DNA from: Leucoraja ocellata
Lineage: Eukaryota
Assembly (NCBI GenBank): GCA_036785375.1
Contig: JAWMAR010000932.1
Span: 310,001 to 374,000, forward strand
DNA: 64,000 nt
Direction of reading: 5' to 3'
Both the position numbers and the translations under genes were made by a program. This document shows, in pieces, positions 120 through 57,639 of this stretch. The notes under the pieces were generated by a model that was not told the DNA's origin, did no database searches, and saw nothing but the letters and a program-made list of their open reading frames with translations. Each line of letters starts with the position of its first letter. Within the stretch, counting starts at the first letter, position 1.

Positions 120-15681
<15,562 letters not shown>

Positions 15682-15770
15682 ATGACAACATGAATTTCCC
15701 TAAAGAAGAAATCCACAGAATGTGTATTTCTTTGTGACATACTTTTTATAATTGAAATAATATTGAACGA

Positions 15771-15776
15771 AATAAA
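15771..15776 (+). terminator. Polyadenylation signal of paralog A
   Basis: AATAAA ~90 nt after the stop, followed by T/GT-rich sequence; homologous context in paralog B. Confidence 0.8.
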
Positions 15777-17471
15777 AGTGCAACACTGAATATTCTTTTT
15801 GTCAACTTGTCTTTGTCAGATGATTCAATAATCATGGTAGGAAAAATAATAATGTGCTGATAGACTCCGGAGAAATTATATTATAAACATAAATATTGGT
15901 GTGGGTATAGAATGAGAAAATATTGGAATGGTGTACTAAAACACTACTTAATTGAGACACAATCATATTTCACATCAGAAATGAATGAAGAACAAAAGTA
16001 CCTGTAGTATGAAGTCTAAAATATAAACAAAGAATGCTGGAAATGTTCTGCAATGCAGGCTGAATATCTGGGAAATGAAGCAGTTAAGTCCTTGACCTAA
16101 AACATTCATTCTGCTTCTCTTCCCACATGTTTCATTTTCGGTATTTATTATTTCTTCGTAACGACATTTCAATTTATGCGGTGGAGATTTGTCCAAGCCT
16201 GTAAGTGTGCTAGTCTAAACTGAAATGCTTAGGCCAGGCTTAATTGTAGTTTCAGGCCCAATTATTTTATTTCCCTTGCAGGTGTCTTTATACTCCTAAC
16301 AATAACGCATATATTTTGAAGTTGCCATTTGCAGAGTCACCAATCTTCCTTACAATTGCCAGAAATTCATTTTTGAAGCAGAATTTGAGTCGGCACCACC
16401 AGAGCGATTATGACAACTATCAAGTTGTAGGTCAATTTTAATTCCTGGTCCCAGGACATCGCTCACACTTTTTAAGTACTTTTGAATTGTAAACACAAGC
16501 TGCGGAGAATGTAGCAGTCCATTGTACCCAACAAAGATGAATAGAAAGTGACACAATCACCACCAAATAATTTTTGTATTAGTAAAACTAATAATTCAGA
16601 GAAAAATATTCACCAGAAGAATATTCTTCTCCTCGTGTTTAAATTAGTGTAATACCACTATGATAACAGACAAGGACAATCTGAAATATCATCTCTAAAA
16701 ACTCACCTTAAGCATTGCAACATTTCCTCAGTACTGTACAAACTCCCCACACATAAGCAAGGGGATTGGGGTATTTAATTAGTGCAAGGTTATTCACTGA
16801 GTTGCTGACAACATATTAAATTAATATTAAATTAACTTTGCTTGCAATCTGCTCTTCTCAATGCCTAACTTTTTCCACCATGTTTAGATGTAACTACCAG
16901 GTTAATCAGAACAGATGAGCCCAGTCTATATGGGCCAAGCAATTGTTCACCCCTTTAACTAATACAAATCACGATTGAGCGTTGTGAAATCTATACCAGG
17001 GCAGTTAAAATATTGGTGCCTGTGTCAAAATTATATCGAGAGCAGAATAAAAAGGGGAAGGAAGATTGGATAAAGTGAAACAAAAAAAAGAACGAATGAG
17101 ACATTAAAAACTAAGAAACATCTTCACAATATTTAAAGCTGAAATAGTGGAATCCACTCTTATCTAAATTTACATTAAATGCTGGTAATTCAAATCCACC
17201 GTGTTGTTAAAAGCATACTTACATTGCAGTGGGCGGACTCACCTTTCTCAACAATCATGGCATCAATGAATTAGTTTGGCATCTCAACTTCATGTTTACT
17301 TCACTGATGAATTTCTTGCTAAGACACATTGAGTTATACCACTTTAGTCCGATATCCCCATTTGGAAACATTGTCTGTGCCTGCCTATACTTGAAATCAA
17401 ACTGAAGACGCAGGAATCTGCAATAAAATATAACATACAGAAAGCCCTCAGCAGGTTAGGCAGCATCCTTG

Positions 17472-17739: not shown

Positions 17740-17970
17740 TATTACAAGTTACAGCACAGAAACAGGCCCTTTGGCCCAACTTGCCCATGCTGATCAAGAT
17801 GACCCATCTACACTAGTGTTACCTGCACACGTATGGCCCATTAGACCCCTCCAAACCTTTACAATCCATGCAAATGTGCAAATGCCTTTCAAATATTATT
17901 GTAGTTCCCGCTTGAACTACTTCCTCTGGCAGCTCTTCCTGTATACCCATCGTGCACCATTACTGTGAAA
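17740..17970 (-). mobile_element. CR1 3'-end fragment
   Basis: ACAGCACAGAAACAGGCCCTTGGCCCAAC...ACTACTTCCTCTGGCAGCTC, reverse complement of the CR1 tail. Confidence 0.7.
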
Positions 17971-18077
17971 TAATCTCTCTGGCAGTAAACTGTAACAATA
18001 AAATCTTTGAATTTTAGTTCTTTAGAATTTGATTATTGTCAAAGTTTGTATTTAGAGAATAAAACTTAATTTGACCC

Positions 18078-18339
18078 GAAGAGATACAAAGAACTGCAAA
18101 TGTTAATTTACAAAAAAGACATAAATGCTGTAGTTACTCAGCGGGTCAGTAAGCATATCTGGAGAACCTGGATAGGTGACATTTCGTGTCGGGATCCTTC
18201 TTCAGGCTGATTATGGTGGGCGGGGAAGCTTTCTGCTCATCACAATCAGTCTGAAGAAGTGTCCAGAGCCGAAACGTCTCCCATCCATGTTCTCCAGAGA
18301 AACCGCCTGGCCTGTTGAGTTACTCCAGCACTTTGTGTA
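18078..18339. mobile_element. Complete non-autonomous fold-back element (Penelope pseudo-LTR-derived) with minimal hammerhead motifs on both strands
   Basis: 12-bp direct repeat TTAATTTGACCC at 18066-18077 and 18340-18351; inverted arms ~18118-18212 and ~18244-18340; plus core CTGAAGA-N13-GAAACGTC 18251-18278; minus core CTGAAGA-N13-GAAATGTC. Confidence 0.8.
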
Positions 18340-19077
18340 TTAATTTGACCCTATCTCTTATATCCCTCTTAATCAATCCTTGTTTTTCTTCCTTTAGTGT
18401 GCTCTCTGAACACGAATTTGTATTGGAATGTACGTTTGGGATTACCGATAAATACGTAAGAATCCTTTGTTTAGACAGACAGCAACTATTTAGCTGACAC
18501 ATTTCACACATGCACTGCAGAGGGCACTATGCTGCAAGGAATCTCCCGTAGGAAACTATCCAAAACGCCAGGAAGATCTTTGGCAATTTGCAAGTCCGAC
18601 GTTTTGGTAGGCAATAACATTTCTAACCACACGCTGCTTTTACTCTCTGCAGTTTTGACTAAGATGATAATTAAATTGTATTATTATTGAATGTCGATAA
18701 TACGGATGATTGGACTTCAACGCTGCCAGGCGAGCAGATTGCCCGCACTGTTGGTTGTCATTCCTATTAATACCCAAACACATTTTAACTAGGTTTTTAA
18801 AAGATTGTGCACAGTATTATAATACATTTTCTAGTTAAGGCGGTAACGTTAAAGGGAGCGCAGGAGAGTGGAGGTCTGGTGAATGAGCGCATGGTGAGGC
18901 TGCTGCCGCACAATCACTAAATGCCAGCTGGCCGGTTATAGTTTTAACGCATTTCCACAAAGACTGCACAATATAATACTTCAACGGTAGACTACCTCGT
19001 CAACACGCGTTTTTAATTTAACCTTCTCTGAACTATTTCAAACACTAATGCAATGGTAGCGGCACAATCCCGAGCAA

Positions 19078-23335: not shown

Positions 23336-23510
23336 GACACAAAGTGCTTGAGTAACTCAGCAAGTCAGGCATCATCTTTGGAGAAAAATCATGGATGATG
23401 TTTCACCCAAGAACCTTTTTCTCCAGAGATGCTGCTGATCCGTTGAGTTACTCCAGCACTTTGTGTCTATCTTCGGTATAAACTAGCATCTGCAGTTCCT
23501 TTCTACACAC
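23336..23510. mobile_element. Fold-back Penelope-derived element, centre deleted
   Basis: GACACAAAGTGCTTGAGTAACTCAGC and GTTGAGTTACTCCAGCACTTTGTGTC inverted arms. Confidence 0.75.
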
Positions 23511-29520: not shown

Positions 29521-29539
29521 AACTGATTTATACCAACGA

Positions 29540-29665
29540 TAGACATAAAATGCTGGAGTAACTTGGCGGGTCACGCAGCATTGCTGGAGAAAATAGACAG
29601 GAGACTGAAGTCTGAAGAAGGGTCCTGACTCGAAATGTCAACTATCCATTTTCTCCAGAGATACA
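29540..29665. mobile_element. Fold-back Penelope-derived element with near-intact hammerhead core
   Basis: GACATAAAATGCTGGAGTAACT arm; CTGAAGA-AGGGTCCTGACTC-GAAATGTC at 29612-29639. Confidence 0.75.
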
Positions 29666-36344: not shown

Positions 36345-54850
<18,506 letters not shown>

Positions 54851-54938
54851 ATGACAACTTGAAATGGTCCACAGAAGAAATCTACAAAATGTGTATTTCT
54901 TTGTAACATAGTTTTATAAATGTAGCAATATCAACAAA

Positions 54939-54944
54939 AATAAA
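54939..54944 (+). terminator. Polyadenylation signal of paralog B
   Basis: AATAAA ~90 nt after the stop, in a 3'UTR that aligns with paralog A (AATAAAnGTGCAACACT). Confidence 0.8.
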
Positions 54945-56691
54945 CGTGCAACACTAAAATGCCGCTTTGTCAGCTTGTGTTATTTAGATGATTCAAAAAT
55001 CAGAGCATGGAAAACCTTCAAAGGAAAACATTTTGCAAGCAAAATATTGGACAGAGAGCGAATTAGAATAATGCATATGAAATATTTTTCAATCATGAAT
55101 CAAGAATATCTATATCAGCATTGACATTATGGAGTGAAAATTAAACTGTTGCTCACACTTAGTCAAGACGTATGTGCCCGGTGTCAGGCTTAAAATGACC
55201 TACAAACCTTATGAACACATTCTGGCTGTAGTGCCTATGCTACCTCCACTGGAAATTTGGACTCATTGTGCAGATTTCTAAGTCATTAATCTTGCCAACA
55301 GCAGCCTTAAATTCATTTTCCAGAGCTGGGTTTAAGTAGCATTTCTTGAACAACTGAAGGGATCCTTTATTATTGCTTAAAATATTTTATCTGGTTAAAC
55401 ATAAAACTTACATTCTGTAGTTAGTCACCATTCAAGTAGAATGACCAGGATAGATCCAATACATTCCACAGTCCCTGCTACTTACAATTTCTGCAAGCAT
55501 ATTTAAATAATGGATTGCTTCTTCATTGATATGTGCACTCACTTTGATTTGCTGAGCTCATGATTGAGAAATAGAGCAAAGTCAGAAGATTCAACAAGTA
55601 TCCAATGAGCATTTGAATTGTCAAGATGTAGAAGACTATGGGACAAATTATGGTAAATGGATTAGTGGGGATAGGTAATCAATGTGCTGGCATGGACATG
55701 ACGGGCTGAAGGACTGCTTGGAGGCTCCTCAGAGAATTATTGGCTACCTACTGTCAAGAGAAAGCTTGTTCCTGACTGTGAATTATAACTCAAAAATGAG
55801 CTGCTGCGCAGATCCCAGCACATCTCACTTCCCCAACCCAATCCGTCAGAAGCTGTACACAGGGTTTAGGGGTGGAATAGATATACAGCTTAGGGGCAGA
55901 TCACAGAAACAACTGTCAAAAATTACCCTTTGCTTCCAGCCACTGAGCCACATCATCTAAATGTGGATCCAAATTACCTCGCTCCTTTAATCACCTGGAA
56001 ATTATTTTTAGCAGACTATTATGTGGGAACTCATCAAAAGCCTTGCTAAAAGTCACCTCCTCTATATCAAATGTACTGTTGTCATAAACAACCAGAAGCA
56101 CACCATCCCCACACCCTCTTCCACCTGTCTTTTGCTACCTTCCCACCTCTACATGTTGCCTGTCCATCATTAATCTGTATTTTGATAAATTAAAGTATGA
56201 AGCTTCCTCAGAATTGAGTCGAATCATTTGGCCTTGACTGAATTCAGACTAATTGACCATAATAGCCAGGTCTATTCCTTCCTTTATTTTAAAGCAACAG
56301 TACGACATTAACAGCTAATTGATCCATTAATTGGTTGTTGAGAATTGTTCTGAGTGTGTAGTTGTGTGGTAGAATCTAGTGAAGATTTATAGTCAACTAC
56401 AAGAGAAAGGAGGGATTCAAAATTTATGGTTTGTGCTTCCAAAATTATATTCATTGTTTTATTAAACAACCTGGGATATATTTAATCTAGGCTGCTGTTG
56501 GGTCAGTTTAAAGATGTTGAACTCTAAATGTGGTACCTCTGCTTCTGCATTACTTATTCCATCCAATAGTTTAGCCATGTTTTCTTTAACTACTACATCA
56601 CCATCTTTTCTCTTCCATGTAGAGAACTCAGCAAAGTATTCTACTGGAATGTTATCGCTATCCCACACATAGGTTATTGTTTTGGTCAGGA

Positions 56692-56890
56692 GAAGGAAGG
56701 AACTGCAGATGCTGGTTTACACCGAAGATAGACACAAAATGTTGGAGTAACTCAGCGGGCCAGGCAGTATCTCGGGATAGAACATCTCTGGGTCCAAAGA
56801 AGGGTCTCAACCTGAAACATCACCCATTCCTTCTATCCAGAGATGCTGTCTGTCCCGCTGAGTTACTCCCGCAATTTATGTCTATCTTAG
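56692..56890. mobile_element. Fold-back Penelope-derived element
   Basis: AAGATAGACACAAAATGTTGGAGTAACTCAGCGGG and CCCGCTGAGTTACTCCCGCAATTTATGTCTATCTT arms; decayed core CCAAAGAAGGGTCTCAACCTGAAACATC. Confidence 0.8.
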
Positions 56891-57639
56891 TATTTTTGTC
56901 CCCACTGTTAGTTATTTTCTTGCAAAATAATATCTGATGCAAATTTTCCTTTTTTGGTTTATCTATGCACTTGTCATCCAGAGACCTATAGGTTTGGCAC
57001 TCTGTGGCAACATATTTACACTGAATAACTTGAATTTCCTCTTGAACACTTCCCCTTGTTCTGAGACTGATTTACTGTCACATACTGTACTTGATTCCAC
57101 ATTATTTTCCACATCACTTCATGTCCCAGTCAAATTGTTTTTATTCACACAGTAATGTGCAAATTTTCAATGGGACATTGTACCTCCTAACCCTAAGAAA
57201 TATAAATATAAATACAAACAACAAATACAAAGGTAATTTAGTAATTGTTAATGAATCCAAACCAAGCACTATGATTTGTTAGTCTACGATGTATCATTGT
57301 GTGAGTGTCATTCCTCAGAAGATTAACTTGTTATGCAATCAAACTTTAGATCTAGATTAATGGATTTACTTACACAGGATGGATAAGTGAAAAACAAACA
57401 ATATCACAGTAAAACGCATAACATATTTATTCATGCATTGTAAAAGATGCAGTTTTAAAGTATTCCTAAAACATGTTGTTTAAAGAGAACTTCATTTCTT
57501 ATAAATATATCCTTTGTTGGGAAAGAATTATAACATTCAAACCTAATGTGATTGGTTTTCAGTCTGAAAACTGACACTGACAATTAGATGCTAAGAATAA
57601 GTCCCTTACACTAAGTCTTTCTCCCAATCCACTGGTCAC

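Follow-up and report, generated by a model that had tools for sequence, protein, structure and literature searches.

A hammerhead motif on each strand of a fold-back repeat in Leucoraja ocellata: a decayed head-to-head pair of Penelope-like element ends and its likely origin in integration

A short fold-back repeat with a minimal hammerhead motif on either strand raises the question of whether it is a mobile ribozyme RNA in its own right or the remains of another element. In this study, we examined such a locus in the genome of Leucoraja ocellata (assembly GCA_036785375.1), located in a window of 64,000 nucleotides that comprises positions 310,001 to 374,000 of contig JAWMAR010000932.1 and to which all coordinates refer. 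The initial annotation had described the locus as a non-autonomous, retrozyme-like element whose RNA would carry a ribozyme core in either polarity. We found an old insertion in which two end pieces of a very common Penelope-like element (PLE) face each other as mirror images. The explanation that best accounts for the whole, with a probability of roughly 0.88, is a single insertion in which two 3' ends of a Neptune-like PLE, both 5'-truncated, are joined head to head, with a likely origin in nicking and priming at both target strands (twin priming). The locus is likely an integration by-product of this PLE and not a self-spreading ribozyme RNA.

Much of the structural description in the initial annotation held. 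The unit is bounded by an exact 12-bp direct repeat, a real target-site duplication that supports the proposed retrotransposed origin, and a hammerhead core motif is found on each strand (Table 1). The inverted arms, put at about 95 nt, measure 99 nt each (18123-18221 and 18235-18333) with a complementarity of 75%. The 286-nt RNA is predicted to fold into a single rod (-131.6 kcal/mol, z = -12.35), with none of 200 shuffled sequences equally stable, and in this predicted rod CUGANGA is paired with a probability of 0.99 to 1.0 on both strands, as expected if the arms sequester the cores. There is no separate spacer: both arms continue into the element's own 3' UTR, overlapping at the palindrome AAGCTT, and in an alignment to the subfamily-A consensus both reach about 20 nt upstream of the hammerhead. 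The tail of the element, an extra ~37 to 40 nt, is found on the left arm and is absent from the right arm. The left arm differs from the consensus at 11 of 91 positions (over +1 to +92) and the right arm at 12 of 92, and no non-consensus base is common to both. An ADAR-type scar was rejected on inspection of the same alignment, as no more than 2 of the 23 differences in the arms fit either strand.

Table 1. Features of the fold-back insertion (window coordinates)
Feature	Position	Strand	Basis
Target-site duplication (12 bp), left copy	18066..18077	+	Exact repeat
Left arm, leftward: 3' end of a Penelope-like element of subfamily A, 5'-truncated (3' UTR end, hammerhead, pLTR, tail)	18078..18230	-	Consensus alignment
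PLE tail (about +97 to +131), left arm only	18078..18114 (right end approximate)	-	Consensus alignment; one-sided tail in sampled pairs
Minimal type I hammerhead motif, predicted inactive	18178..18205	-	Motif reading, consensus alignment, pairing check
Head-to-head junction, palindrome AAGCTT	18226..18231	.	AGCT core found in 3' UTR consensus
Right arm: second 5'-truncated 3' end, subfamily A, no tail	18227..18339	+	Consensus alignment
Initiator-like TCAGT at the 5' edge of the hammerhead; putative transcription start of the parent element	18246..18250	+	Solo-arm starts
Minimal type I hammerhead motif, predicted inactive	18251..18278	+	Motif reading, consensus alignment, pairing check
Target-site duplication, right copy	18340..18351	+	Exact repeat

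The window contains two tandem myosin heavy-chain genes on the plus strand (4762-15780 and about 44650-55000; Myosin_tail_1 matches), the first with its last exon near 15680 and a poly(A) signal near 15771. The insertion lies ~2.3 kb downstream of this signal, and another very high-copy short repeat occupies positions 17750-17935 just upstream of it. Contigs of three other species labels bridge a flank and the element, one of them spanning the junction (17772-18313, 18 differences), which indicates that the insertion is old and shared. A second copy of the whole locus is present at G000:C346:520943-524204 (L002) and is 99.5% alike over 3.2 kb; several other sampled loci likewise occur twice, so that haplotype or segmental duplicates are probably present in the assembly.

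A search of the genome with the locus yielded 5,571 candidates; among the 40 that were scored, the top unrelated matches show 70 to 89% identity, many over one arm only. Elsewhere, single arms extend upstream into a common pyrimidine-rich sequence and downstream into the common tail, and remnants of a GIY-YIG endonuclease and a reverse transcriptase (RT) lie further upstream. The endonuclease C-terminus was found within 900 bp of 81 of 386 near-complete arms. Subfamily-A arms sit 243 to 292 bp behind GIY-YIG C-terminal remnants of 38 to 79% identity in about ten long copies; for this subfamily the coding evidence comprises only such endonuclease-end remnants, and the intact open reading frame (ORF) is known from the sister subfamily C. 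There, an intact 1,221-amino-acid ORF lies between two pLTRs bearing the same hammerhead, and a protein search of the genome (37,938 candidates) gave several open frames of more than 1,000 codons among the 150 that were scored. The ORF has the DKG and YIDD motifs of the RT, a CxxxxCxxC linker (CGRSRCNTC at residue 1088), and, at its C-terminus, a GIY-YIG region containing CxxC. It thus combines the RT motifs DKG and YxDD with the two-cysteine GIY-YIG domain of endonuclease-positive (EN+) PLEs, and its linker fits the CX2-5CxxC pattern of Neptune, which is common to Nematis. With the linker and clade definitions given in PMC8557442, these features identify the parent as an endonuclease-positive PLE of the Neptune/Nematis type. 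Pfam scores of the ORF lie below the curated cut-offs (RVT_1, 28.6 versus 29.6; GIY-YIG, 16.3 versus 22.6), and a PDB sequence search with it returned no match. Young copies occur in tandem or partial tandem with a ~3.95-kb unit, and the pLTRs and 5' truncation expected of PLEs are both seen. Judged by linker motif and not by RT phylogeny, each arm is almost certainly the 3' end (pLTR) of a Neptune-like PLE. A young subfamily (L123-L142, e.g., L124:5119-8784) comprises many near-identical copies with intact 1,221-amino-acid ORFs, which have a long proline-rich N-terminal part; it was probably active recently or still is.

The family consensus retains the core features of the Penelope-type minimal type I hammerhead recognized in the initial annotation: the invariant core, the extra base between 9 and 10.1 (A), G10.1-C11.1, and the palindromic ACGU (15.2-16.2) are all kept in the cluster consensuses (k=5 and k=7). 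In the copy examined here, two of the four stem II pairs are broken on each strand, in agreement with the mutated stem II noted earlier. The first, core-proximal stem I pair is likewise broken in both motifs, and the minus-strand motif has AUGU instead of ACGU. Neither motif retains intact stems I and II, and both hammerheads are predicted to be inactive. No hammerhead family was matched in an Rfam scan of the locus, so that the call rests on motif reading and the family consensus. Matches of the microRNA type in the same scan were rejected as generic hairpins below the gathering score (e.g., mir-67, 30 bits versus 53).

Between subfamily consensuses, the differences are compatible with pairing (U-A to U-G in stem II and in stem I), the cleavage base changes from C to U, and loop II is variable; the stem II changes are one-sided only, with no double compensatory change among the consensuses compared. 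The kept core and these pairing-compatible differences fit selection in source elements. By a strict pattern, the core is kept in 76 of 398 arms, and the core with all stems in 33 of 398 and in 1 of 193 subfamily-A arms. For excess conservation of the core across genomic copies, named as a check in the initial annotation, the picture is mixed: the difference is significant in the 193 subfamily-A arms (divergence of 6.0% versus 12.2% raw, p = 0.004; 6.0% versus 10.7% base-matched, p = 0.0014), a set with the core at the edge of the alignment and hence a figure biased low, and not significant in the 53 arms aligned from upstream of the core (9.1% versus 11.0%, p = 0.17). The latter set provides the fairer test, and selection on the core after insertion is not clear. 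The hammerhead travels with the pLTR as a passenger; if it matters at all, it does so in the parent transcript and not in this copy.

The arrangement of arms was analyzed in the window and in 80 further 10-kb stretches, taken from large contigs at round coordinates (864 kb together). The 398 arms detected comprise 82 head-to-head pairs, 9 tail-to-tail pairs, 30 in tandem, and 234 solo arms; the 799 kb outside the window contain 383 arms and 78 pairs. Extrapolated to the assembly, with duplicate loci included, this corresponds to ~1.6 million arms and 0.29 to 0.34 million pairs. The window itself harbors thirteen more arms of the same PLE families (13339-63102), among them three further head-to-head pairs (23336-23501, 29529-29662, and 56689-56893).

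For 57 of the 82 pairs both outer ends are defined (25 were left out), and 27 of these have a target duplication compared to 0 to 1 in 10 shuffled controls, a count that the initial annotation had suggested as a check. The duplications in sampled pairs measure 9 to 19 bp, mostly 12 to 15, and a tail is present on exactly one arm in 49 of the 57. Together, duplications and one-sided tails indicate that head-to-head pairs are single insertion events, as supposed in the initial annotation. Target duplications are much rarer around solo arms (24/197; controls, 0 to 13), and this low rate is unaccounted for by a model of head-to-head twin priming. The 5' ends of the solo arms accumulate at TCAGT, with 70 of 234 starting at -1 to +3 of this motif and 3 at +30 to +34 around the cleavage site. 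A smaller pile-up of 11 solo arms was observed at +24. TCAGT would be the transcription start of the parent element and, going by the general initiator consensus, we take it to be initiator-like. An Inr-like TCACT is reported from rotifer pLTRs in PMC3846280. Starts at TCAGT and not at the cleavage site are in line with unprocessed RNA as the main substrate, as reported in PMC11167929.

Since the arms of the old copy share no non-consensus base, origin from the same template is shown only in younger relatives. Young head-to-head insertions with arms of 0.1 to 2.9 kb have the same layout, with duplications of 14 to 17 bp. Where the arms reach kilobases, the two arms of a copy differ at 1 of 2,265 positions in one case and at 12 of 1,907 in another, while no other sampled copy is more than 98.6% alike. 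One junction recurs in the young subfamily, with 2,104 exact matches genome-wide, and it lacks CUGANGA in both arms, from which it follows that the ribozyme is not needed for hairpin formation. The first 50 hairpins listed for this junction, including at least three probable duplicate pairs, have a duplication in 44 cases and a one-sided tail in 49. Rare variants are shared within a copy 42 times, compared to 12.7 in shuffles (maximum, 20). The base at the junction center comes from the tailed arm in 28 and from the untailed arm in 21 (p = 0.39), and the set of 50 has no fixed arm-specific difference. Sharing of variants was also detected in old subfamily A as a group (27 versus 16.8 expected, p = 0.01). 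Gene conversion could account for the identity of arms instead. Across the general sample, 43 pairs could be scored for the reach of their arms: the untailed arm extends 10 nt or more beyond the other on the 5' side in 19, the tailed arm does so in 6, and in 18 both end within 10 nt of each other. The recurrent junction of the young subfamily is a hotspot inside the hammerhead, where an alternative 15-nt near-palindrome is made up of stem II and GAAAC and head-to-head pairs are joined repeatedly.

These end patterns suggest that head-to-head pairs probably arise by twin priming. The element's enzyme would nick both target strands, 12 bp apart at this locus, and a short cDNA would be primed at each nick. 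The two cDNAs may begin at the two RT start sites on either side of the tail, giving one arm with and one arm without it, and both would stop near the 5' end of the RNA or at a structure. They would then be joined via self-complementary microhomology, here AGCT, and repaired. This scheme appears to match the behavior of an anole PLE protein that, according to PMC11167929, cuts and extends both target strands in vitro with starts at two sites bounding the tail; the same source reports that hammerhead cleavage is not required and names unprocessed RNA as the main substrate, and it predicts a dimer. A literature search for twin priming in PLEs found nothing specific, and subscription papers and supplements may hold descriptions. 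On a genome-wide scale, the short pairs may record, as fossils, the coordinated twin priming of a dimeric PLE enzyme, a proposal to which we give even odds: nicks would lie 12 to 15 bp apart, both cDNAs would be copied from RNA of one source element with its 5' end at the front edge of the hammerhead, the 3' ends of the cDNAs would anneal at palindromes, and mismatches would be repaired either way. If true, coordinated twin priming would explain two long-puzzling features, the inverted pLTR and the tail on one side only, with no need for ribozyme cleavage or an antisense template.

The main competitor of twin priming, which we consider possible but doubtful, draws both arms from the same parent; the second would arise through self-priming, in which the first cDNA, or alternatively an antisense RNA, folds back at a palindrome and is copied on itself. 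Self-priming on an antisense template is proposed by Arkhipova et al. 2013 (PMC3846280), where palindromic junctions are read as a sign of self-priming. It agrees with the derivation of the arms from one template and with the preference of junctions for palindromes, given that the 15-nt near-palindromic junction is common to 10 of 119 pairs and that a single junction recurs so often in the young subfamily. However, a fold-back copy never exceeds its template, so the tailed arm would have to come first, reach as far 5', and supply the center base, whereas the untailed arm supplied it in 21 of 49 cases and is the longer one in 19 pairs versus 6. In addition, a perfect palindrome of 4 to 6 nt, as at this locus, would leave an intramolecular hairpin no loop. 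Same-template arms with a center base from either arm (28:21) therefore favor twin priming over simple cDNA fold-back. With a master hairpin, the center and the arm variants would be fixed; with simple cDNA fold-back, the donor would be the tailed arm. Twin priming at two nicks fits all counts.

The retrozyme-like reading of the initial annotation, in which the whole hairpin is transcribed and, after processing by its hammerheads in either polarity, retrotransposes as one unit, is already largely refuted and in our view very improbable. A duplication-bounded unit with a rod fold, the abundance of hairpins, and the recurrent young junction would all suit it, and PLE pLTRs are reported to mobilise sequence in trans (PMC3846280). 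However, pair junctions are scattered, with lengths of 111 to 610 bp (median, 187; 5 of 82 at 250 to 275 bp). The junction of this copy is found in none of the other sampled pairs (n = 82 in total) and matches two places in a non-exhaustive DNA search that skips very common words, the second being the duplicate locus with the same flanks; amplification of a fixed unit is thus not apparent. Both core motifs are kept in only 1 of 82 pairs, namely this copy, and both with stem II in none. The junction that does recur deletes CUGANGA from both arms, the 50 young hairpins lack fixed arm-specific variants and have a mixed center base, 5' ends show no accumulation at the cleavage site (3/234), and the cores are fully paired in the predicted rod. 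Copying of a hairpin RNA as a unit is also disfavored, as it would not give what is seen here, an element 3' end on both outer sides. Motifs on opposite strands are found because one pLTR is inverted.

Two independent pLTR insertions in adjacent opposite orientation, or a later DNA rearrangement inverting one copy, are hardly credible either. Arms are dense (~1 per 2.1 kb), and those of the locus are only 75% complementary and share no variant; yet each is 12 to 13% from the consensus, so that age alone explains the ~25% divergence between them. Moreover, one duplication encloses both arms, head-to-head pairs outnumber tail-to-tail pairs 82 to 9, the tail is one-sided in 49 of 57, and an orthologous site with a single arm and its own duplication was not seen in contigs of other species labels. 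Co-option of the hairpin to regulate the neighboring myosin heavy-chain gene, whether as RNA or as DNA, is equally improbable: it could draw on the short distance to the poly(A) signal and on the occupied site under three other species labels, but such pairs occur about every 10 kb, which makes proximity to the gene expected, the hairpin lies outside the mRNA, and the decay per arm (~12 to 13%) equals the subfamily average (12%).

Taken by itself, the locus is neutral repeat DNA of an ordinary sort, a decayed head-to-head PLE stump of a known kind. A hairpin with a hammerhead on both strands gives a viroid-like impression, yet this arrangement follows from PLE inversion, which calls for caution with similar loci. 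The insertion is one of a very large set of natural records bearing on how PLEs build inverted pLTRs and tails, and the twin-priming reading of the pair population is the part worth following. The layout of inverted pLTR, one-sided tail, and target duplication is already published, as are opposite-strand hammerhead pairs. A literature search for such repeats in cartilaginous fishes and for Chompy-type elements gave nothing specific, and subscription papers and supplements may hold descriptions.

The closest known systems are the inverted-pLTR units of Pen2a_Av and other EN+ PLEs, which, as described in PMC3846280 and PMC8557442, share the head-to-head inverted pLTR, a 30- to 40-bp tail at one end, the target duplication, an overlap or palindrome at the junction, and an initiator-like pLTR motif. 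Both this locus and the pair population show the corresponding insertion unit of an inverted 5'-truncated copy, a 30- to 40-bp tail at one end, and a target duplication of variable length. In contrast to the units in PMC3846280, the halves are cut to 110 to 150 bp without an ORF, the abundance is far higher (~0.3 million pairs, extrapolated), and duplications center on 12 to 15 bp instead of the 8 to 10 bp of the rotifer examples. With PAc, the Poseidon element of the green anole (PMC11167929), the element described here has in common a pLTR with a hammerhead, a tail bounded by two 3' end points, and short copies that end away from the cleavage site; it differs from the account in that source in its CX2-5CxxC linker (Neptune/Nematis type) and in an ORF that begins downstream of the tail and not inside the hammerhead. 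Metazoan PLE minimal type I hammerheads, as reported in PMC4209133, have the same CUGANGA and GAAA-NN-UH core with the extra base between 9 and 10.1, and G10.1-C11.1 and the palindromic ACGU replacing stem III are also common to this family, in which stem II has 4 bp and stem I only 2 bp beside the core, a stem I length also reported for D. virilis; compared to these, both motifs of this copy are broken. Minimal hammerheads are reported to cleave as a dimer (PMC6765202, a review; PMC4209133), and Cervera and de la Pena 2014 (PMC4209133) report dual motifs on opposite strands 100 to 700 bp apart in Schistosoma. Non-LTR retrozymes (PMC7229834; bioRxiv 10.64898/2026.07.22.740005) are likewise short, non-coding, hammerhead-bearing, and PLE-related, with longer target duplications. 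However, they are described there as head-to-tail tandem repeats on the same strand with mostly canonical, active hammerheads and circular RNA, whereas this locus is an inverted pair, not a tandem, with decayed minimal motifs on opposite strands.
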